This document shows, piece by piece, positions 1-34,371 of a stretch of 44,112 bases of DNA; position 1 is the first letter of the stretch, and each line of letters begins with the position of its first letter. This DNA comes from a virus, in the UHGV virus genome UHGV-0127376; one strand, 5' to 3'. Made by a program: the position numbers and the translations under genes. The notes below the pieces were generated by a model. It made no database searches and was not told the DNA's origin. It was given only the letters and a program-made list of their open reading frames with translations.

Positions 1-1553
1 GTGTAGGTACAGCCTCGTCTGAGACAGCGTGGTACCAGTTCAGCTACAGCACCCGCACCTGGTCTGAGGTGGGAGCGTACGGCAGCATCACCAAGATTAC
101 GAACATGCCCCGAGAGCTTGCTGCAGATGACAACATTATTGCGCGGGATTGGGAGGGGCGTTTAGCTGGTAACGACGACAATAACAGCGACCCCGGATTC
201 GTGGAGAATGGATACATCACCGGCATTGCAGCTTTCCAGGGCCGCTTGGTTCTGCTTAGTGGTAGCTCCGTGGATATGTCTGCCTCAGGTCTGTACCAGC
301 GCTTCTACCGCTCCACTGTGACGTCTCTGCTGGATACGGACCGTATCAGCATTAGCTCTGCGTCTGCACAGGATTCTGTGTATCGTACCGCTGTGCAGTT
401 CAACCGGGACTTGGTCCTGTTTGCTAACAGCATGCAGGCGGTTGTGCCGGGTTCAGCGGTACTCACCCCCACTAACGCAAGTATTAGCATCACCAGCACC
501 TACGAGTGTGATAGCCGTGTGACTCCGGTAATGGCGGGGCAGACGGTAATCTACCCGAATAAGCGCAACAACAGCTACGCGGGTATACTGGAGCTAATCC
601 CATCACCATATACTGCGGCGCAGTACACTACGCAGGACGCCACGGTGCACCTGCCGCGGTACATTCCCGGCAGGGTATTGCAGATGCAAAACTCCAGTGT
701 CACCAATATGGCCTTCTCACGAATGTCCGGAGAGCGAAATAACCTGCTGGTCTATGAGTTTATGTGGGGTGGGAGTGATGGTGCTAAGATGCAAGCGTCG
801 TGGCATAAATGGACGTTCCCATATCCAATCCTGAGCGTGCAGGCGCTGGAGGATGAGGTGTTCTTGTATATGCAAGGGCCCAGTCCCAGCAACAAGCTTT
901 TGATTGTGTCTATGGACCCGCGTGAAGGTTATCAGCTGGGTTCGGAGTACCGCGAAGCCTACTCGGATTTGCAGAAGCAAGTTCAAGTGCAGGATGGGGT
1001 GTTTACTGTTCCGGCGGTACTGCGCCCCGTCGGGTGGGCTGACAACTACAAGGAAGAGCTTATCCTAACGTACTTGCCCAGCAACCCTATGGGGCCTACT
1101 GAGGTTGGCATCAAGGAGATTGCCGGGGAGAACACCCTGCGGGTTGTGCGTGGTGTACCTGATGGCACCTACGTAATTGGGAGACGCTACCGCAGTACGT
1201 TCACTCTAACTACGCCTATTCTACGGGACCAGAATGACAAGCTAGTGGGAAGTGGGCACGTGCGCCTGCTGCGCCTGGACGTAGCAGTACGTAACTCTGG
1301 GCACTTCGATGTACAGGTACTAGACACCCCACGGGACGTCAACTGGGGTGGGGAGCTAACCGGTATCTTGATGAACTCAAAGGAGCTAACGCTTGGGCAG
1401 GCCCTGCGTATGGACTTGGCTACGATTACCGTGCCGTGCCGTACTAACGCAGACACAACCGAGGTGACGTTATTTACTGAGGGTTCTATGGAACTGAACG
1501 TGCTGGATATCTCGTATATCCTGCGCTACAACCAACGCAGACGGAGAATTTAA
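1..1553 (+). CDS. Tail tubular protein B (T7 gp12-like), C-terminal part; reading frame is open from the first base of the window
   Basis: Frame of ORF 69..1553 has no stop back to position 3; the N-terminal part of the same protein is at 43307..44112; position between tail tubular A and the internal virion proteins. Confidence 0.75.
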   Translation, partial: VGTASSETAWYQFSYSTRTWSEVGAYGSITKITNMPRELAADDNIIARDWEGRLAGNDDNNSDPGFVENGYITGIAAFQGRLVLLSGSSVDMSASGLYQRFYRSTVTSLLDTDRISISSASAQDSVYRTAVQFNRDLVLFANSMQAVVPGSAVLTPTNASISITSTYECDSRVTPVMAGQTVIYPNKRNNSYAGILELIPSPYTAAQYTTQDATVHLPRYIPGRVLQMQNSSVTNMAFSRMSGERNNLLVYEFMWGGSDGAKMQASWHKWTFPYPILSVQALEDEVFLYMQGPSPSNKLLIVSMDPREGYQLGSEYREAYSDLQKQVQVQDGVFTVPAVLRPVGWADNYKEELILTYLPSNPMGPTEVGIKEIAGENTLRVVRGVPDGTYVIGRRYRSTFTLTTPILRDQNDKLVGSGHVRLLRLDVAVRNSGHFDVQVLDTPRDVNWGGELTGILMNSKELTLGQALRMDLATITVPCRTNADTTEVTLFTEGSMELNVLDISYILRYNQRRRRI

Positions 1554-1554
1554 T

Positions 1555-2142
1555 ATGTGGTGGATGGTTGCGGCCATGGCCGCTAAGGCCGTTCTGGGGC
1601 AGAGTGCTCAGATTGAAGTGTCCAAGGCCAGGAACAAGGCTGTGATTCAACAGACAGCCAAACAGTTAAACGATATAGCGCTGCAGCGTGCACAGTCCAG
1701 GGACAGGACTGAGGTATCCCTGTTTAACATCCAGCAGCAGAAACTGCAGGCGCAGAGCCAAGTAGGACTGCAGGCAGCAGCCTCTGGCACTATGGGGGCC
1801 TCTGTTAAAGACGCCGTAGCCACCGTGAACACAGTAGCAGGGCGACAAGAGGCTAGCGTACGGGACCAGCAGGCAACCCAGGAAGAGGGCTTCCGGCTAA
1901 TGACGGACAAGGCTGTGGATAGTGGTCTGGCTAACATGGACATGGAGGACCCGTACGATAACATGTTTAACTCGTTGCTAAGTGTTGGGGCATCTGCCGT
2001 TGGGCAGTACGCCGGTAACGCTGCGTCATCTTCTGACTCTGGCGGCTCATCCCCTGGTAGCGGTGCGTCGGCTACACAGAACACGGCATCCTCCTATGAC
2101 TTATGGGGGAGTAAGGGTAACAGCTCAGTTCATACCTGGTAA
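1555..2142 (+). CDS. Internal virion protein (small, first of three)
   Basis: 195 aa, ATG overlaps upstream stop (TAATATG); synteny after tail tube B; Ala/Gln/Ser-rich low-complexity protein. Confidence 0.5.
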   Translation: MWWMVAAMAAKAVLGQSAQIEVSKARNKAVIQQTAKQLNDIALQRAQSRDRTEVSLFNIQQQKLQAQSQVGLQAAASGTMGASVKDAVATVNTVAGRQEASVRDQQATQEEGFRLMTDKAVDSGLANMDMEDPYDNMFNSLLSVGASAVGQYAGNAASSSDSGGSSPGSGASATQNTASSYDLWGSKGNSSVHTW

Positions 2143-9866: not shown

Positions 9867-11722
9867 TGGTATCGGTGAAGACTGCGCGAAGACTGCGCAT
9901 GCTCAACCAGAAACTTACTGGTTATAGTGCGAATCCGCGCAGTATTCCCAAAGAGGAGCGCGAGGATATCGCGATGATGATGGCCGCGGCGCTAAGCGAC
10001 TTCCGGGAATTCGCGTACATCGGTATGCGGTTCCTGGGCTTTACGCTCACGGACATGCAGGCCGACATTGCAGAGTACATGCAGAAGGGCCCCCGGAAGC
10101 GCATGGTGGCCGCGCAGCGTGGTGAGGCTAAGTCTACACTAGCTGCACTGTACGCCGTCTGGAGGCTCATCCAGGACCAATCCTGCCGTATCCTGATTGT
10201 GTCCGGTGCAGAGAAGCAGGCGTCCGACGTAGCGAACTTAATCATTCGTATGATTGAGACATGGCCGCTGCTGTGCTATTTGAAGGCTGATCCTACTCGT
10301 GGGGACCGTACTTCATTCGAAGGTTATGACGTACACTGTGACCTCAAGCCGCTGGAGAAATCCGCCAGCGTAGCCTGTGTAGGTATCACTGCATCCCTGC
10401 AGGGTAAGCGCGCGGACCTGCTGATTCCGGATGATATCGAGACCACCAAGAATGGTTTAACGCAAACCCAGCGTGAGCAGCTGCTGATGATTTCTAAAGA
10501 CTTCGCGGCTATCTGTACGCACGGGGATACGCTGTACCTGGGTACACCACAGACCAAGGACAGTATCTATAAAACCCTGCCGGGACGTGGCTTCGAGGTC
10601 CGCGTGTGGCCCGGGCGCATTCCGTCTGTTGAAATGGAAGAGCGATATGGAAGTACACTTGCTCCTTATATCCTGGAGCTTATTGAGCGCGGCTATAAAC
10701 GCACCGGCTTCGGAGTCGACGGGACGCTAGGCGAGAGCACGGACACCGGGCGCTATGACGAGGATGCGCTGATTGAGAAGGAGCTGGACTTTGGTCCGGA
10801 AGGCTTCCAGCTGCAGTACATGCTCGACACCACCCTGTCCGACCAAATGCGTACGCGCATCAAGCTATCGGATATGCTGGTTTACTCTGGCAGCCAGGAT
10901 TCCTCCCCGGAGACGTTCTCCTACATTGCGGACCGCAGGCACCTGTACCAGCACGAGCATGAGGGGATTATGGGTCAGCAGATGTACTTCCCGGCATTCT
11001 ACGGGGACATGCACCTGCCGTACCAGCATAAGGTACTGGTGGTGGACCCGGCTGGTTGTGGTGGGGACGAAGTGTCCTACGCTGCTGGAGGTGCTGCGAA
11101 CTCGTACATTCACCTATTCTCCGTAGGCGGATTCCAAGGAGGTATCAGCGAAGAGAACATTGATAAACTGATTGACCTGTGTGTAGAGTTGGACATCCCG
11201 GATATGGTGGTGGAGAGCAATATGGGGCACGGTACCGTGTCTATGCTTATCCTGAACCGATTACGTGAGCGGCGTCTCGCCGGTATCGGTGTAAGGGACC
11301 TGAATAACTCCACGCAGAAAGAGCGTCGTATCATCGACACAATCAGCCCAGTTACTCGTCGCCATCGCCTGATAGTGCATGAGCGTGCTATTCACGACGA
11401 TATCAGTACCTGTATGGCATATTCCCGCGATAGGCGTTGGCTGTACTCTGCGTTCGCGCAGTTGTCCGGTATCACGTACGACCGCGGTAGCCTTGCGAAG
11501 GATGACCGGGCAGACGCAATCGCCATGATGGTGGCTACGCTGAATGGGCATCTGGTGGAAGATGAGAAAGTGGTGGCTGAGCGTGAGTCTGAGAAGATGG
11601 CTCGGGCCTTCATTGAGAACCCACTGGATTGGGCACAGAGCAAAGTGTCTAAGGGCCTTCGTGGTGTAGCTGCTCGGCTACATAACCGGGGCAGAGGTAA
11701 ACAACATAGAGGAAGAAGATAA
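9866..11722 (+). CDS. Terminase large subunit (DNA maturase B)
   Basis: 618 aa; size and position as T7 gp19; ATPase/nuclease-type acidic motifs (LIPDDIETT, VVDPAGCGGDE). Confidence 0.8.
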   Translation: MVSVKTARRLRMLNQKLTGYSANPRSIPKEEREDIAMMMAAALSDFREFAYIGMRFLGFTLTDMQADIAEYMQKGPRKRMVAAQRGEAKSTLAALYAVWRLIQDQSCRILIVSGAEKQASDVANLIIRMIETWPLLCYLKADPTRGDRTSFEGYDVHCDLKPLEKSASVACVGITASLQGKRADLLIPDDIETTKNGLTQTQREQLLMISKDFAAICTHGDTLYLGTPQTKDSIYKTLPGRGFEVRVWPGRIPSVEMEERYGSTLAPYILELIERGYKRTGFGVDGTLGESTDTGRYDEDALIEKELDFGPEGFQLQYMLDTTLSDQMRTRIKLSDMLVYSGSQDSSPETFSYIADRRHLYQHEHEGIMGQQMYFPAFYGDMHLPYQHKVLVVDPAGCGGDEVSYAAGGAANSYIHLFSVGGFQGGISEENIDKLIDLCVELDIPDMVVESNMGHGTVSMLILNRLRERRLAGIGVRDLNNSTQKERRIIDTISPVTRRHRLIVHERAIHDDISTCMAYSRDRRWLYSAFAQLSGITYDRGSLAKDDRADAIAMMVATLNGHLVEDEKVVAERESEKMARAFIENPLDWAQSKVSKGLRGVAARLHNRGRGKQHRGRR

Positions 11723-15582: not shown

Positions 15583-16044
15583 ATGTCTATGAACATCAAA
15601 TATGACACAACATCCCCTAGCTGCTTGGTGTGGCTCAAGGGTAGGCGCTCCGGTGCTCCAGCGGGTACCCGCAACACTCGTGGCTACTGGGTGGTACAGG
15701 TATCTGGTAGAAAGATACAGGCACACCGCCTCATCTGGGAACTACACAACGGGCCTATTCCAGACGGATATGTGGTGGACCACATCAACCAAAACCCCGG
15801 TGACAACAGATTAGAGAACCTGCGCTTAGCTACGGTTAGCGAAAACAACTGTAACGCACGCAGGTCTAAGCGGGAACATCCTAGGGGTGTATACTACACT
15901 GGCACCTGCTGGCGCGGGGAGTTCTGGAAGGACGGTAAGCGTTACATGAAGAAGCACAGCTCCTACGAAGTTATCTGCAAGTGGGTACTAGAGAAACGTC
16001 AAGAGCAACACAAGGCCTTCACCCCGGGGCAGGTGTATATCTGA
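15583..16044 (+). CDS. HNH homing endonuclease
   Basis: Motif VDHINQNPGDNRLENLRLATVSENNCN (HNH_3/AP2-type); free-standing between tailspike and repeat region. Confidence 0.8.
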   Translation: MSMNIKYDTTSPSCLVWLKGRRSGAPAGTRNTRGYWVVQVSGRKIQAHRLIWELHNGPIPDGYVVDHINQNPGDNRLENLRLATVSENNCNARRSKREHPRGVYYTGTCWRGEFWKDGKRYMKKHSSYEVICKWVLEKRQEQHKAFTPGQVYI

Positions 16045-16866: not shown

Positions 16867-17283
16867 GTGGCTAGAACATTTAAGATTGTGGTTGATAAGG
16901 AAGGTTATCCAGTGATTAATGGTGCTGGGCCTGAGTATGTGAATAAGCGAGGTAAGAGAGACTATAAGACTGTGGCGCTGCATAGGGCCGTGGTTATGGA
17001 TGCTCTGGGAATCACTAGCTACGGTTCTGGCTATCACGTACATCACTGTGACAGTAACCGCCTTAACTGTGACTTCAATAACCTGATACTGGTTAGCGCT
17101 GACACTCACCGGGCCATACACTTAGCACAGATTCAGGAAGGGAGATGCTTCACAAAGGATGAGTTATTGGCTAGTCCTGAGTACGATACTAACTGGCGAG
17201 AGTTCGACGTGACTTATGGGGACTACAATAGTTTACTGCACGCAGACCTTTGGGGGTCTGCTTACTCTTTTTGCTCCCAGTGA
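16867..17283 (+). CDS. HNH endonuclease
   Basis: Motif YHVHHCDSNRLNCDFNNLILVSADTHRAIH; GTG start with SD AAGGAG 9 nt upstream. Confidence 0.75.
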   Translation: MARTFKIVVDKEGYPVINGAGPEYVNKRGKRDYKTVALHRAVVMDALGITSYGSGYHVHHCDSNRLNCDFNNLILVSADTHRAIHLAQIQEGRCFTKDELLASPEYDTNWREFDVTYGDYNSLLHADLWGSAYSFCSQ

Positions 17284-23304: not shown

Positions 23305-24095
23305 TGGACCAGCCCTGGCTTAGAGCGTGCAAGCGCCTGGCCGTTGGGCAGAGGGCGCGCTTTCGGTGCTGCGGCAGGGACGCCGCCGGGGTGCTCTACA
23401 ATAACCCGGATGCCTGGGAATATTATTGCCACCGCTGCAAACAGGTGGGCAAGGAGCACAAGCAGTACCAGCGCATACAGTTACAGGAAGAGCCGAGGGT
23501 GCAGCCCTCTGCACCTGCAGATGCAATTTGCATTAGCCAAGCGCCTGCGGAAACGCAGAGTTTTCTTTACGGATTCCTGACCACAAAGGGAATCATGCCT
23601 GAAATGGTGGAGGATGCAGAATGGAGCAAAGAGAAACAGCGGATAATATTCCGTGTCGGAAGCGCTGCTCTGGGCCGTGCAGTGCATGCCCGACAGCAAC
23701 CGAAGTGGGTAATGTACGGCCAGCCAATGCCGTTCGCTGCCGCGGCACCTGCCGTAGCGCCGGATGTAGCTGCGGCCGCACCTCTAAAGGTCGTGCTCAC
23801 CGAGGACTATCTATCAGCGATCAAATATCAGCACGCGATTACGAACTACTCTGCAATGAACGTGCAGGCTATAGCTATGCTGGGTACTCGCTTGCCCGTG
23901 CAGTTAAGGGCGTGGCTGATACAGAACAAACCGACAGTGATACTGTCCCTGGATAATGACCAAGCGGGACACTCCGGCGCGGCCATGATACGGCGCGCGC
24001 TACGTCCCTTTATGTCGTGCCACGAAATCTACTACGACGGGGACCCAAAAGAGGCAACAATACAGGAGTTATTAGATGGTATTAGGCGCGTGTAA
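23304..24095 (+). CDS. DNA primase (zinc-binding + TOPRIM)
   Basis: N-terminal Cys motifs (RFRCCGRD ... YCHRCKQ) and TOPRIM-like VLTEDYLSA / ILSLDNDQAGHSGA. Confidence 0.8.
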   Translation: MDQPWLRACKRLAVGQRARFRCCGRDAAGVLYNNPDAWEYYCHRCKQVGKEHKQYQRIQLQEEPRVQPSAPADAICISQAPAETQSFLYGFLTTKGIMPEMVEDAEWSKEKQRIIFRVGSAALGRAVHARQQPKWVMYGQPMPFAAAAPAVAPDVAAAAPLKVVLTEDYLSAIKYQHAITNYSAMNVQAIAMLGTRLPVQLRAWLIQNKPTVILSLDNDQAGHSGAAMIRRALRPFMSCHEIYYDGDPKEATIQELLDGIRRV

Positions 24096-24522
24096 AGAGC
24101 ACAAACAGAAAGGCGGACCAAAGGGTTACGGAAATACCACGTTCAAAGGGCGGAAGATACCCCTGCATAGAAAGGTGTATTGCTCGGCGAACGATATATC
24201 TCCGGAGAGCATAGTGGGGCTAGTTGTGCGCCATAAGTGTGACAACCCGAGATGTATTAATCCCGAGCATTTAGAATTAGGTACGGTCAAGGATAACGTC
24301 CATGACTGTATTGCCAGGGGTAGGGCTAAACGCGGGGTTTCTAAAGGAGAGCATAATGGGTACTCCAAGCTAACGGAGCAACAGGTGGGCTATATCAGGG
24401 AGAACTACAGACGGTACAGCAGGGAGCACGGTATACCGGCTATAGCTGCCAGCCTTGGCGTGAGTGTGTCAGCAGTGCACGGTGTGTTGAAAGCTAAAAC
24501 TTGGAGGTTTAATTGGACCTAA
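24076..24522 (+). CDS. HNH homing endonuclease (paralog family A)
   Basis: Motif VVRHKCDNPRCINPEHLELGT; inserted between primase and helicase. Confidence 0.8.
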   Translation: MVLGACKEHKQKGGPKGYGNTTFKGRKIPLHRKVYCSANDISPESIVGLVVRHKCDNPRCINPEHLELGTVKDNVHDCIARGRAKRGVSKGEHNGYSKLTEQQVGYIRENYRRYSREHGIPAIAASLGVSVSAVHGVLKAKTWRFNWT

Positions 24523-25849: not shown

Positions 25850-26290
25850 ATGGAAATGAGTGAGTGTATCGACCACGGACGTTCGCGCAGCCTATCCCCA
25901 GAAGGCTACGCCTTGGTAGCTAAACCGGGGGTTAACAGTCGCTGCGTACGCCTGCACAGGCTGGTGCTGGCGGAGAAGTTAGGGGTGCCACTTAAAGCTC
26001 TAGATGGAGTGGTTGTCAGACACACCTGCGACAACCCGCGGTGCATTAACCCAGAGCACCTAATACCCGGAACCCCTGCAGATAACAACAAGGACCGAGC
26101 AGTGCGCGGTCGTAGTGCTAAGCGGGTGCCTAGCCGCCAACGCCTAACCCTTAAAGACTGCGAAGATATCTGCGCAAAGCATATACCTAGGGTTTATGGC
26201 GTCACCCACCTGGCCCGCGAGTACGGCGTAGACGCTAACGTCATATACAAAGTACTAAGAGGAGAGTACCCTTGTCAACAACCAGTATAA
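25850..26290 (+). CDS. HNH homing endonuclease (paralog family A)
   Basis: Motif VVRHTCDNPRCINPEHLIPGT; between helicase and DNA polymerase. Confidence 0.8.
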   Translation: MEMSECIDHGRSRSLSPEGYALVAKPGVNSRCVRLHRLVLAEKLGVPLKALDGVVVRHTCDNPRCINPEHLIPGTPADNNKDRAVRGRSAKRVPSRQRLTLKDCEDICAKHIPRVYGVTHLAREYGVDANVIYKVLRGEYPCQQPV

Positions 26291-28686
26291 TGCACATAGA
26301 TTTAGAGGTTCAAAACCATGAATATTACGGCTCTAAAGCAAGCCCATACTGCCCTGACAACTATGTTGTTGAGTCAGCATGGCGTATCGACACGACACAG
26401 GCTGACGGTACTACCACTGTTGGCGCGACTCAATCGGTGCGCTTCAATTCAAGAGCTGATTTCTTGGCGGGAAACAGTGCAGCAGAAGGCTGCCGGTGGT
26501 TTCATATCCCCGAGGATTGCTGGCTTATTGTTGCGCACAACGCAGCCTATGAGATTTCTTGGTTTCTCACGTACCAGCGACAGCAGTTTGAAGCCTTCCT
26601 CAAGCGCGGCGGCAGGGTGTTCTGCACAATGCACGGTGAATACATCGCCTCGGACTTTCAGAGCATGTATCCGTCATTGGACGAGACGGCTCCTAAGTAC
26701 GGCGGTACGCACAAAGTAGACGGGGTTAAGCTTCTGTGGGAGCAGGGTGTGCTAACCTCCCAGATTGACCCGATGCTGCTACATGACTACCTGGTTAACG
26801 GGGACATCCCGAACACGGCCCTGTGCTTCTACGGCCAGTGCGCTACGTTCGCCCAGCGCAATCAGATGCAGTACGTGTGGGAGCGTATGGATGCCTTGCT
26901 GGCTTGGGCGTACTGCGAATGGTTCGGCCTGTTCGTGAATATGCCAATTGCACGCAAGAACCAGGAGGAGCAGGAGCAGCGCATCCGTGAGATTAAGCAG
27001 GAACTGCAGCAGTACATCCCGAAGGACTTGCCGGAGACGCTGGACTTCAATTTCGGGTCGGACTTTCATATGTCTGCACTGGTGTACGGCGGGCCTATAA
27101 AGTACCGCAAGAAGGTCCCCTATGACCCTCCGCAGTACGTCAAGGCCGACTACTATAAGTACGAGGACGAAGATGGTGCGCACACCTATATACCTGTACA
27201 CGACACGCACATGCAAGAACTTCAAACGGAAGGCGGATGGTGGCGTGTAGTGACATATCGTGCGGGTAAGAACAAGGGGCTCCCTAAAGTATTCCGCCTC
27301 GATACCGAGGAAGAGAAACTTAAATGGGAAGACGACCTTTACTTCTGCCCGGGCCTAGTGAACATCCAGGAGCTTCCGGAAGTTATCCGGGAGAAGTACG
27401 CAGAGCGCGGGGAGTTCCGACAGGCGCGCACCCTGCAGGATGGCACCCCTGTGTATAGCACCAGCACTGATGCAATGGAGGCGCTGGCTCGCCAAGGGTT
27501 CGAGTTCTGTAAGTTGGTGAACGAACTGGCGGCGCTGGAGAAGGATACCGGCACTTACTATTTGCGAGAAGTACTGGACGCAGAAGGTAATGTAAAAGAG
27601 CGGAAGGGGATGCTGCAGTATGTAATCCCGGAGCGTCCCGATGGTTCCGGCATCATTCACCACCGGCTGAATACTTGCGCCACCGTAACCGGGCGCTTGA
27701 GTAGCTCTAACCCGAACCTGCAGAACCTACCCCGCCCGGATGAGGATGGCGACGGTGTGGCTAAATCCAAGGTGAAGCAGGTGTTCACCAGTAGATTCGG
27801 GGACAACGGACGTATCACTGAGGTTGACTACTCGGCACTGGAAGTGGTTATGTCCTGTGTACACACGGGTGACAAGAAACTGCTGGGACTGCTGCAGAGT
27901 GGTACGGATATGCACTGTTACCGCCTAGCTTTCCGCGAGGGATTACCGTATGAAGAAGTATATGAGCGCTGCCACAACAAGAAGCACGAGCTGCATCCGC
28001 TTTGGAAGGCAATGCGTACAGGTATTAAGGCTCCTAGCTTTGCAGCCCAGTATGGCGCTACGGCTAAGGGGATTGCGTTTGCTACTGGATGTACGGTGGA
28101 ATTTGCACAGGCTTTCTTGGACAACGAGGCTGCGCTGTTCCCGCAAACAATTGGCTTCCGCGCTGTTGTCAAGGAAGAGGTAGAACGTACCGGTGCGGAG
28201 GGGCGCATGTACCGGGAGCAGGCTGACGACGGCAGCTACCGAATCTACCGCATTGGGACGTGGACCAGCCCAGCCGGTGCCCGCTACAGTTTCCGTCAGA
28301 AAGAGCAGTGGAAAGAGGTTGTGCCTGGGCAGCGTAAGCAGAAGGTAATGGACTACAAGGAAACAGAGATGGCTAACTACTGGTGCCAGGGGGAAGCATT
28401 CTTCCTGATGGCGGTAGCCGCCGGTATGGTTCTGCGTGCACTCCTGGCCCGTGACTGGTTCGACAATCAGGTGTGCCTGATTACGAACGTGCACGATGCG
28501 TTGTATCTGGACAGCGCCAACCCGGAGGTTGGACGTGAGGCGAGCCTGCTGGTTAAGCAGTGCATGGAGGATGCACCTAAGCGTATTCACCAGCTCTGGC
28601 CTAACTACGGCATCATTGGTGAGGTCCCGTTCCCAGCAGAGGCTGAGATGGGTACGAGTATGTACAGTAAGGAGAAGGTAGAATGA
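26272..28686 (+). CDS. DNA polymerase (family A, T7 gp5-like)
   Basis: Exo motif HIDLE near N-terminus; polymerase motifs TGRLSSSNPNLQNLP and NVHDALYLD; start may be ATG 26290 rather than TTG 26272. Confidence 0.9.
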   Translation: MSTTSIMHIDLEVQNHEYYGSKASPYCPDNYVVESAWRIDTTQADGTTTVGATQSVRFNSRADFLAGNSAAEGCRWFHIPEDCWLIVAHNAAYEISWFLTYQRQQFEAFLKRGGRVFCTMHGEYIASDFQSMYPSLDETAPKYGGTHKVDGVKLLWEQGVLTSQIDPMLLHDYLVNGDIPNTALCFYGQCATFAQRNQMQYVWERMDALLAWAYCEWFGLFVNMPIARKNQEEQEQRIREIKQELQQYIPKDLPETLDFNFGSDFHMSALVYGGPIKYRKKVPYDPPQYVKADYYKYEDEDGAHTYIPVHDTHMQELQTEGGWWRVVTYRAGKNKGLPKVFRLDTEEEKLKWEDDLYFCPGLVNIQELPEVIREKYAERGEFRQARTLQDGTPVYSTSTDAMEALARQGFEFCKLVNELAALEKDTGTYYLREVLDAEGNVKERKGMLQYVIPERPDGSGIIHHRLNTCATVTGRLSSSNPNLQNLPRPDEDGDGVAKSKVKQVFTSRFGDNGRITEVDYSALEVVMSCVHTGDKKLLGLLQSGTDMHCYRLAFREGLPYEEVYERCHNKKHELHPLWKAMRTGIKAPSFAAQYGATAKGIAFATGCTVEFAQAFLDNEAALFPQTIGFRAVVKEEVERTGAEGRMYREQADDGSYRIYRIGTWTSPAGARYSFRQKEQWKEVVPGQRKQKVMDYKETEMANYWCQGEAFFLMAVAAGMVLRALLARDWFDNQVCLITNVHDALYLDSANPEVGREASLLVKQCMEDAPKRIHQLWPNYGIIGEVPFPAEAEMGTSMYSKEKVE

Positions 28687-28904
28687 GTATAAAGTCTGGC
28701 AGTGTTGTGGAGTTGATGGACCTGGGGCCTGAGCCGATAGACCCGCGGTATGCAGCATACTTCGCCCCGGGTACGAGGCACACGGTTATGTTCTTCGACC
28801 CGGTTACTGGGGAGATAGAACTAAGTTATCCTGGACTAGTAGTAAGTAGACCGGGGGATGGTGTTACCTTCTTCCCGGGGGAGTACAAGCTTATCGTGGA
28901 ATAG
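28683..28904 (+). CDS. Hypothetical small protein
   Basis: 73 aa ORF overlapping polymerase stop (ATGA). Confidence 0.5.
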   Translation: MSIKSGSVVELMDLGPEPIDPRYAAYFAPGTRHTVMFFDPVTGEIELSYPGLVVSRPGDGVTFFPGEYKLIVE

Positions 28905-29065
28905 TGATAGGTGGACCCTTGGGTGGTGTAGGGGGTTAGGGTAGCATGGAAATACACTGGGGTCAACTAAATAATTAAATAAAATTATTTGTTGACTCTA
29001 GCTTGATTCTGTGATTCATAGAGAATTAATGTGATACGAGTAGGAACAACACAAGAGGGTACCGA

Positions 29066-29504
29066 ATGTCGATGTGTATTGACCACGGGTATAACAAATG
29101 CCTTAACAAGAACGGATACCGCCGGGCATGGTATAAGCCGACCAGGCGATTGGAGCTGCTGCATCGGGTGGTGTATGCTGAGCATAACGGGCTGGATATA
29201 AGGGCGCTGGCTGGCCTGTCTGTTAGACATACCTGCGATAACCCCAGGTGCATTAACCCTAAGCACTTAGTATTGGGTGGGAACGCATATGGATAATATG
29301 CGGGACCGTGCAGAGCGCGGAAGGAACCCAGATGTGCGTGGGGATAGGAACCCAAAAGCGCAGTTAACTTGGGATGCTGTGCAGGATATCAGGGATAACT
29401 ATATCCCATACAAGAAAGGTATGCGGCAACACTTTGCTAATAAGTACGGTGTAGGTGTACATGTAATTAGTGACGTAATAAGTAACAGGAGCTGGAATGC
29501 CTAA
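29066..29504 (+). pseudogene. HNH homing endonuclease (paralog family A) interrupted by a +1 frameshift in a G-run near 29276..29281
   Basis: ORF 29066..29296 (..VRHTCDNPRCINPKHLVLGG) and ORF 29277..29504 (GTHMDNMRDRAERGRN..) align in series with the intact paralogs (..HLIPGTPADNNKDRAVRGR..); removing one G restores a 146-aa protein. Confidence 0.6.
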
Positions 29505-30477
29505 GTTAAACACAATAAAGCTATTCACCAAAGAGCAACACATAGATATCTTGAGCAAGCACAGCTCTAACGTGGATGCTGCTGCCGCCTATAATAAGCT
29601 GGCGGGACTGGACGAGCCAGTGGTGTATCGACAGATGGTGAAGTACTGGCGCAGCATATTCCTAGACCACGCTGGGAGCAAGGGTAAGGCAATATCCCAC
29701 ATGAAGGAGGCACTAAAGCTCATACAGCCCAGTCCCACTGATGACATCGGCAAAACCTTCGTGCCGGAAGTGTGCCACCGTATTCTCGTAGTTGGGGATT
29801 TGCATGCCCCCTATACGCACGTAGATGCTATGGCCTTCTTAGAATCTGTGCGAGACGCCTACTGTCCGGACATGGTTGTACAGGTAGGCGACGAGACGGA
29901 CGGCCACGCTATATCATTCCACGAAAGTAACCCGAACCTGGATAGCGCCGGGGTGGAGCTGGAGAAAGCTAAGCTCGTACTGGAGGAGCTACATGAACTG
30001 TTCCCGAACCTATTGGTTTGCGATTCCAATCACGGCAGTCTGGTTTACCGCAGGGCGAAAGCTCACGGGCTACCAGTGCAATTCATCAAGAAGTACCGAG
30101 ATATACTTTTCCCTGAGCATGGTGCCCCGGCGTGGTCTTGGGCTGACGCATGGGTACTCAATACCCCACTTGGCCCGGTTAGATTCCAGCATCAAGTGTC
30201 GGGCGATTTCATGCTCAATGCCAGCCACGAAAGAACCAGCCTTGTACTTGGCCACGAACATGGCCGCTTTGAGGTGCAATATGCAGCTAGCTCAACAGCT
30301 CTGTACTTTGGTGCGTACGCTGGGTGTCTGATTGACCGCAAGAGTATGGCCTTTGCTTACGGCAGACTCACTCGCAAGAAACCAATCCTGGGTGTGATGG
30401 TAATCACCGAGGGTTGCCCGCAGTTAATTTCGATGCTGCTTGACGACGATGGTCGTTGGGTTGGTCGTACTAAATAA
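29497..30477 (+). CDS. Calcineurin-like metallophosphoesterase
   Basis: Motifs VVGDLHAPY (GDxH), GDETDGH (GDxxD), CDSNHG (NH), LGHEHG (GHxH) in canonical order. Confidence 0.7.
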   Translation: MPKLNTIKLFTKEQHIDILSKHSSNVDAAAAYNKLAGLDEPVVYRQMVKYWRSIFLDHAGSKGKAISHMKEALKLIQPSPTDDIGKTFVPEVCHRILVVGDLHAPYTHVDAMAFLESVRDAYCPDMVVQVGDETDGHAISFHESNPNLDSAGVELEKAKLVLEELHELFPNLLVCDSNHGSLVYRRAKAHGLPVQFIKKYRDILFPEHGAPAWSWADAWVLNTPLGPVRFQHQVSGDFMLNASHERTSLVLGHEHGRFEVQYAASSTALYFGAYAGCLIDRKSMAFAYGRLTRKKPILGVMVITEGCPQLISMLLDDDGRWVGRTK

Positions 30478-30490
30478 CACAGAGGTGATG

Positions 30491-30658
30491 ATGAAAATGG
30501 GAATCTGTTCTGTACTGGGCCTTATCTTTGTAACCTTGAAACTGACTGGCGTTATCGCCTGGTCCTGGTTGTGGGTGCTGCTCCCGTTCTGGGGGCCTAT
30601 GGCACTCGGCGTAATCCTAGTGTTCTTGGCGGTGGCCCTCAAAGCTGCCTCCCGCTAA
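30491..30658 (+). CDS. Small membrane protein (two predicted TM helices)
   Basis: Hydrophobic 55-aa product; SD AGAGG 5 nt upstream of ATG 30491 (ORF-track start 30440 lacks SD). Confidence 0.5.
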   Translation: MKMGICSVLGLIFVTLKLTGVIAWSWLWVLLPFWGPMALGVILVFLAVALKAASR

Positions 30659-30709
30659 GCCCTGCATCTGCACGTAAATATCATTCAAACTAAACGAGGA
30701 AGTAATTAT

Positions 30710-33753: not shown

Positions 33754-33910
33754 GTTATACTACGAGGGGAAACATGATGAACTTGAAACTATTCTGGTTG
33801 CGCTGCGTGAACGAGCACCCAAAACACATCGAAGAACGGTTGAGCATTTGGATTCTCTCATTCACGACAATGCTCTGCTGGATGTAGTTGGGGAGATTGA
33901 GGTATGGTAA
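33710..33910 (+). CDS. Hypothetical small protein
   Basis: ATG 33710 with SD AGGAG upstream; overlaps the exonuclease 3' end in another frame (ORF-track start 33641). Confidence 0.4.
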   Translation: MAKMSAKEMSLRAIELYYEGKHDELETILVALRERAPKTHRRTVEHLDSLIHDNALLDVVGEIEVW

Positions 33911-34371
33911 GTTGGGTGCCGCTAGTTAACGGCAGAAAAGATTACTTGGTAAATGATAATGGGGAGATAACAGGACCATCCGGCAAAGTGTTGAAACCTG
34001 CTCGACAGGGTGGCGGTTATCTGTATGTAAACACTAGCCCTAAGAACGTCTATGTGCATAGGGCTGTTGCTGAGGCCTTTGTACCTAATCCACACAATCT
34101 GCCAGAAGTTAACCACATAGACGGGGATAAAGAAAACAATAGAGCCGGCAATCTAGAGTGGGTCACTAGGCGCTCTAATGTAATACATCAAGTGGACAAC
34201 GGACTACACTGTAAAGTTAGACTATGCCCGGATACTGTACGCTATTTGCGGACGATGTATTTACCAAGAGACAGAGACTGGGGTGTATCTGCAATCGCGC
34301 GTAGATTGGGTATGTCTAAGGCAGCAATAGGTTTGATGCTACAGGGGGCAACTTGGCGACACGTCGAATAA
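33904..34371 (+). CDS. HNH homing endonuclease
   Basis: Motif EVNHIDGDKENNRAGNLEWVTRRSN (HNH_3-type); between exonuclease and endonuclease VII. Confidence 0.8.
   Translation: MVSWVPLVNGRKDYLVNDNGEITGPSGKVLKPARQGGGYLYVNTSPKNVYVHRAVAEAFVPNPHNLPEVNHIDGDKENNRAGNLEWVTRRSNVIHQVDNGLHCKVRLCPDTVRYLRTMYLPRDRDWGVSAIARRLGMSKAAIGLMLQGATWRHVE

Follow-up and report, generated by a model that had tools for sequence, protein, structure and literature searches.

The genome of UHGV virus UHGV-0127376 was analysed as a single stretch of 44,112 nucleotides (nt), referred to here as the window, and is that of a Drulisvirus (KP34-like, Autographiviridae), a podophage of Klebsiella. At 29066..29504 two overlapping open reading frames (ORFs) are the halves of one gene of the HNH / His-Me-finger family. 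The best explanation for this arrangement, and a very probable one, is the recent inactivation of a putative free-standing homing endonuclease gene by duplication of the tetranucleotide TGGG, as a case of ordinary decay in one Drulisvirus lineage. The window copy is a pseudogene of the family rather than an active member, because the window encodes only fragments of the protein; features of this kind are already known. Its parts are as follows.

29066..29504, plus strand: the whole HNH / His-Me-finger putative homing-endonuclease pseudogene, 439 nt (435 nt in intact orthologues).
29066..29296, plus strand: open reading frame of the N-terminal fragment, 76 amino acids, ending in HLVLGGNAYG and a stop codon.
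29277..29504, plus strand: open frame of the C-terminal fragment, 75 amino acids from GTG, starting GTHMDNMRDRAERGRN, in the +1 frame relative to the first ORF.
29289..29504, plus strand: the C-terminal fragment from its first ATG, 71 amino acids, as public gene callers have it.
29274..29281, plus strand: the lesion in DNA alignments, a tandem duplication of TGGG (copies 29274..29277 and 29278..29281) where orthologues have a single TGGG.

An earlier reading of the window, made from its letters only (the sequence-only reading), had described both ORFs and the +1 frame of the second as they are found here, and had placed the frameshift in a run of G. The net +1 shift, after codon Gly71, stands; the homopolymer does not, since the duplicated unit is TGGG and the longest mononucleotide run at the lesion is GGG. 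The same reading had proposed that the two pieces become collinear with intact paralogues of the window when one G is removed. They are collinear, and in silico deletion of a single G does restore the frame, but the resulting 145-amino acid protein has an extra Gly found in no relative. A single-G insertion was rejected as the historical event because the orthologues differ by exactly 4 nt. Comparison with related isolates, which the sequence-only reading had suggested as a check, places a 4-nt insertion in the window and an intact ORF with a single TGGG in the relatives. The insertion is seen against all four aligned orthologues (RCIP0044, RCIP0106, K66PH128C1, and KpV71), two of which are identical to the window across the gene; at the lesion the relatives read GTATTGGGAACG and the window GTATTGGGTGGGAACG, so that TGGG has become TGGGTGGG. 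In silico deletion of the 4 nt gives a 144-amino acid product that is 100% identical to RCIP0044 WPJ52045.1, and the repaired coding sequence matches that of RCIP0044 at 432 of 432 nucleotides. The event appears to be very young because the coding sequence has no other change.

Membership in Pfam families was judged by a profile hidden Markov model score above the curated gathering cut-off. The repaired product scores 37.3 bits for PF13392 HNH_3 (cut-off 24.8) and 28.5 bits for PF05551 zf-His_Me_endon (cut-off 27), and its PHROG assignment (6254/59) is HNH endonuclease. The N-terminal ORF alone scores 29.6 bits for PF13392 and 27.8 bits for PF05551, and the C-terminal fragment alone has no Pfam match. 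The N-terminal fragment holds the zinc ligands Cys4, Cys57, Cys62, and His67, the general-base His55, and both beta strands, and ends in five out-of-frame residues (GNAYG) before the stop at 29294..29296. C4, C57, C62, and H67 are invariant in alignments of 42 and 49 sequences, and the Cys/His zinc ligands align with C100, C105, and H110 of I-PpoI. The C-terminal fragment holds the catalytic helix with Asp75/Asn76 and a region modelled as a separate three-helix domain resembling a helix-turn-helix (HTH) DNA-binding domain; the structure model was made by AlphaFold with the 49-sequence alignment, and a single-sequence run (predicted local distance difference test score, pLDDT, 36) was discarded. 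The ββα-metal fold by which the HNH / His-Me finger family is recognized is present, and the break falls at the β2-to-α junction of the ββα-Me motif. With His55 in the first ORF and Asn76 in the second, the base and the metal ligand are not on one polypeptide as the window is written.

The orthologue is present in 17 of approximately 260 related GenBank records (approximately 7%) and is uninterrupted in all 17, as it is in five metagenomic or viral contigs. Among intact orthologues, the ratio of nonsynonymous to synonymous substitution rates (dN/dS) is 0.04-0.08 over a synonymous divergence (dS) of 0.17-1.37, and the protein is therefore functional where the gene is unbroken. The insert sits exactly between a conserved ribosome-binding site (RBS) and the start codon of a phosphoesterase gene, and the flanking genes are intact. 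In phage F19 the site is empty, with the phosphoesterase gene directly after the same conserved leader and RBS. Sporadic presence at a fixed site among close relatives, the pattern used to recognize free-standing homing endonuclease genes, is thus what is found at this locus. The allele and 0.5-1 kb of its flanks are virtually identical in six backbones (RCIP0044, RCIP0106, L006, L007, L095, and L093) that diverge by 5-10% outside this block of near-zero divergence, which runs from about 28300 or 28900 to 30100 and is centred on the HNH gene; the block may be a co-conversion tract. A decaying homing-endonuclease pseudogene was one of the options offered by the sequence-only reading, and it is the one favored by the sporadic distribution, the precise intergenic insertion, the intact orthologues under purifying selection, and the splitting of the catalytic motif.

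The slot holds something else in phage KP1-1 (L087, PQ571298.1), where a different HNH gene of 130 amino acids occupies 768..1160. It is approximately 43% identical to the broken gene and 45% identical to the paralogue at 25850 of the window, and different family members seem able to use this slot repeatedly as a landing site.

In the proposed course of events, an HNH homing endonuclease gene of the I-PpoI/I-HmuI-like type would have come to sit between the leader with its RBS and the metallophosphoesterase gene in a minority of Drulisvirus. Replication slippage on a short G-rich repeat is the likely source of the TGGG duplication. Translation in the shifted frame would then stop five codons on, at 29294..29296, and the 76-amino acid product would keep the zinc knuckle and His55 and lose Asn76, the catalytic helix, and the C-terminal HTH. 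Judged by the mechanism of I-PpoI and I-HmuI, this product should be catalytically dead, and by the same analogy neither fragment should cleave DNA. The locus would fit the degeneration stage of the homing-endonuclease cycle of invasion, fixation, degeneration, and loss.

Breaks of the same general kind were seen in other members of the family. Two of them fall at one short run of C, which is intact in the window.

29242..29245, plus strand: C-run in the invariant Cys-Asp-Asn-Pro codons, C4 in the window and a +1 frameshift site elsewhere.

Contig L093 (Logan SRR28432133_5832, approximately 9950..9960) carries the same allele in a different backbone with a single TGGG, and in it C4 has become C5, an independent +1 frameshift approximately 30 nt upstream of the position of the window lesion. 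Contig L175 (Logan SRR21426206_2482, 1332..1779) has an approximately 70%-identical member in another slot, after an endonuclease VII gene; it is split by a +1 change at the same C-run, with C6 where the frame needs C5, and the contig is present in three samples. The lesions in these two Logan contigs are true homopolymer changes, and some of them may be sequencing errors. In two further proteins from Logan contigs, P0031 (124 amino acids) and P0061 (114 amino acids), the N-terminal half is normal and the C-terminus is scrambled (for example, ...KFKKKKRIRGRN), which suggests that other phages also carry frameshifted copies. In this family, slippage appears to recur at short G/C runs within the catalytic codons. 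Recurrent frame-breaking slippage is as expected, because homing endonuclease genes decay once fixed.

Whether the duplication is carried by the phage itself was examined through other assemblies with the junction, which were found by exact protein look-up. The exact 76- and 71-amino acid fragments are in a public protein collection, each from four contigs, and the exact intact protein is on 38 contigs; the exact duplicated junction was not found in IMG/VR, a collection from which the contig of the window itself seems to be missing. Over 20.2 kb, the window is matched with 100% identity by contigs from ENA ERZ28623008 (labelled QINJ12-1_SAMN00715264) and JGI 3300045988. The duplicated form, TGGGTGGG, is also in a contig from JGI 3300056514, which differs from the window in two ways: three nucleotides are deleted in frame at 29611..29613, and there is a C>T change at 30686. 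That contig shares a lineage-specific A>G change at 29059 with the window. The change alters the RBS that serves the HNH gene from AAGAGGA to AAGAGGG and was seen only in the duplication-bearing lineage (the window and L090) and in no intact allele.

Several points weigh against decay of a homing endonuclease gene through a genuine mutation. A dN/dS of approximately 0.05 at dS near 1 is stronger and longer constraint than might be expected of a purely selfish element that decays in cycles, and the intact protein could be of use to the phage as well. Ordinary homologous recombination, and not co-conversion associated with homing, could have produced the high-identity block. The identification as a putative free-standing HNH homing endonuclease gene rests on family membership and distribution. 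The ENA and JGI 3300045988 contigs, which make up two of the three assemblies with the junction, are probably built from the reads behind the window itself, and reproducibility rests on assemblies, with that of JGI 3300056514 being a possibly non-independent sample.

These last points bear on the alternative that survives best, which is that the duplication is a sequencing or assembly artefact, in a genome that really has one TGGG and an unbroken gene. An artefact would also give a repaired gene 100% identical to the intact RCIP0044 allele, and the site is G-rich, with a G5/G6 difference from RCIP0044 nearby at 28931..28935. However, a duplicated 4-nt unit is not a homopolymer length error, and at least two pipelines recovered the junction, which is also in a third dataset that differs from the window at two other positions. 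The assembly is also not prone to indels: approximately 16 kb aligned to RCIP0044 has no other frame-breaking coding indel, a census that is only partly informative since the window is a mosaic that is approximately 87-96% identical to RCIP0044 outside the near-identical block. The QINJ12 / SAMN00715264 label presumably points to an Illumina short-read cohort, and in Illumina data consensus 4-nt insertions are very rare. The duplication is much more likely real than an error because it involves a 4-nt unit, is in the output of several assemblers, and is present in a variant genome as well. An artefact is accordingly unlikely, and the duplication is probably a real and very recent mutation. The specific error proposed by the sequence-only reading, a miscalled homopolymer, fares worse, given that the lesion is not a change in run length and that the same junction is in assemblies from three datasets.

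If the mutation is real, the two halves might still work as separate polypeptides, with the C-terminal one made by reinitiation at ATG 29289 or ATG 29298 and the two reassembling, or with a free HTH fragment acting alone, for example by masking the cleavage site. The position of the start codons would allow this, as ATG 29289 overlaps the end of the first ORF and ATG 29298 lies 2 nt after its stop; the 71-amino acid ORF has been called in three public datasets and is also what the independent break in L093 leaves, and the C-terminal half contains the separately modelled three-helix domain. Neither ATG, however, is preceded by a good Shine-Dalgarno (SD) sequence, and the split cuts the active site between strand and helix. 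No His-Me finger is known to reassemble from fragments. The split allele is also limited to one lineage and has no later sequence change that points to adaptation, and a functional split is very improbable.

A related pair of possibilities keeps some function in the broken allele. All three lesions (the TGGG duplication and the extra C in L093 and L175) are net +1 changes at quadruplets that allow P-site re-pairing (G_GGA and C_CCC). The allele might thus be an attenuated one, in which +1 slippage yields a trickle of a full-length and potentially toxic nuclease, or the 71-amino acid HTH fragment might block cleavage by relatives in co-infection; it is highly unlikely that either applies.

Programmed or adventitious +1 frameshifting, which the sequence-only reading had listed as its least likely option, is the least probable of the alternatives considered at length. 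In this case tRNA-Gly would slip from GGG (29279..29281) to GGA (29280..29282) and a 145-amino acid enzyme with one extra Gly would be made at a reduced level, with the predicted junction peptide ...HLVLGGTHMDNMR. The sequence GGG_A (29279..29282) does let the peptidyl-tRNA-Gly re-pair in the +1 frame. A perfect 7-bp hairpin at 29284..29302 (CGCAUAU-GGAUA-AUAUGCG) starts 2 nt downstream of the slip site and encloses ATG 29289, the stop of the first ORF, and ATG 29298, and a 121-nt region folds better than shuffled sequences (z = -3.1). The other two independent lesions are in the C-run, and CCC_C is a +1-shift-prone quadruplet. On the other hand, the hairpin sequence is also in intact alleles and is not conserved in approximately 90%-identical orthologues, the A-site codon after the slip site is AAC, which is common and not a stop, and no SD-like stimulator stands at a suitable distance upstream. 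The frameshift itself is in no orthologue examined and is not a conserved recoding site. A programmed FRAMESHIFTING is not supported because conservation, the deciding test, fails: every orthologue outside the window lineage has a single TGGG and an uninterrupted ORF. Translational correction of indels is described in reviews (PMC5009743). Here, read-through of the frameshift is expected at background level only. Switching resembling phase variation was rejected, as high switching rates need far more repeats than the two tetranucleotide copies present, and only one lineage has two copies.

Inactivation of a homing endonuclease gene by the TGGG duplication can be compared with several known systems. 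I-PpoI (PDB 1a73, 1cz0; PF05551) is from a nuclear group I intron of Physarum and is a 163-amino acid dimer with a second zinc site and no C-terminal HTH, whereas the window protein is free-standing, phage-borne, 144 amino acids long when repaired, and has an HTH; similarity between the two is marginal (E about 5e-3). A 42-sequence profile was required to reach I-PpoI; with the repaired protein as its only query sequence, phmmer gave no match in the PDB. I-HmuI from Bacillus phage SPO1 (PDB 1u3e) is 19% identical to the window protein but does not have its Cys/His zinc knuckle; it is intron-encoded in a DNA polymerase gene and is a nicking enzyme. Degenerate homing endonuclease genes offer a parallel to the broken state, in that a small mutation breaks the frame and close relatives keep the intact gene, and decay was also seen in L093 and L175. 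Precedents include the cycle of Goddard and Burt and the truncated I-TevIII of T4, which is intact in RB3. Compared with these, the window has the earliest stage, with a single lesion and no further substitutions. The free-standing homing endonuclease genes of phages (seg and mob of T4 and the HNH genes of KP34-/phiM1-like phages) are similarly sporadic between conserved replication genes with several copies per genome; the copy in the window differs in being broken. Variable HNH homing endonuclease genes have been reported among the replication genes of KP34-/phiM1-like phages (PMC6115819). A search of the literature for Drulisvirus together with HNH and homing endonuclease found no paper, and the broader literature gives general support only.

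In public assemblies the locus is represented by two small "hypothetical proteins," which should be merged and flagged as one pseudogene of a putative HNH homing endonuclease. Since the lesion would be one slippage event without later substitutions, seen against many intact orthologues that are under purifying selection, the locus offers a clean and datable example of how homing-endonuclease decay begins. That frameshifts recur where the catalytic codons contain short G/C runs suggests that the codon composition of the catalytic motif itself makes such genes fragile. For phage-therapy genomics of Klebsiella Drulisvirus, the HNH gene is dispensable.

The sequence-only reading had called the broken gene the third HNH paralogue of the window. 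It is the third member of one subfamily, in a window with six HNH_3-type ORFs (15583..16044, 16867..17283, 24076..24522, 25850..26290, 29066..29504, and 33904..34371). The other two members of the subfamily are intact.

24076..24522, plus strand: intact paralogue 1, 148 amino acids, same subfamily, absent from RCIP0044.
25850..26290, plus strand: intact paralogue 2, 146 amino acids, same subfamily, the source of the segment ...HLIPGTPADNNKDRAVRGR... quoted in the sequence-only reading, absent from RCIP0044.

The broken gene is 38% and 43% identical to these two, respectively. Four of the six HNH_3 ORFs (16867, 24076, 25850, and 33904) have no counterpart in RCIP0044, and variable nuclease genes make up approximately 6% of the 44-kb genome.

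Of the 260 phage records that match the region 28600..30600, 233 are Klebsiella phages; RCIP0044 and RCIP0106 match best (98.9%). In RCIP0044, RCIP0106, K66PH128C1, and KpV71 the slot is annotated as a single 435-nt ORF, with a 73-amino acid ORF (downstream of the DNA polymerase gene) on one side and the metallophosphoesterase gene on the other. Two features adjoin the pseudogene in the window.

28905..29065, plus strand: conserved intergenic leader with RBS AAGAGGG (29053..29059) driving the HNH gene, nearly invariant in an alignment of the window, F19, KP1-1, and RCIP0044.
29497..30477, plus strand: downstream metallophosphoesterase gene (phrog_221, E 2.7e-106).

The start of the metallophosphoesterase gene overlaps the HNH stop (ATGCCTAA), and the gene has its own SD sequence, AGGAG at 29487..29491, 5 nt upstream of the ATG. 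A polar effect of the frameshift on this gene was rejected because of this AGGAG. The leader, approximately 160 nt long, is near-invariant in the four phages despite the different genes that follow it. A scan of 28650..29650 for sigma-70 promoters and terminators gave one weak site, not above shuffled sequences; the leader may contain a promoter for the phage RNA polymerase or another signal. Within it, the intergenic G-run at 28931..28935 is one nucleotide longer in RCIP0044 (G6) than in the window, F19, and KP1-1 (G5). RCIP0106 (L002, OR532900.1) has an extra 480-nt ORF at 565..1044, between the DNA polymerase gene and the 73-amino acid ORF, which is in neither the window nor RCIP0044 and may be another mobile nuclease gene.
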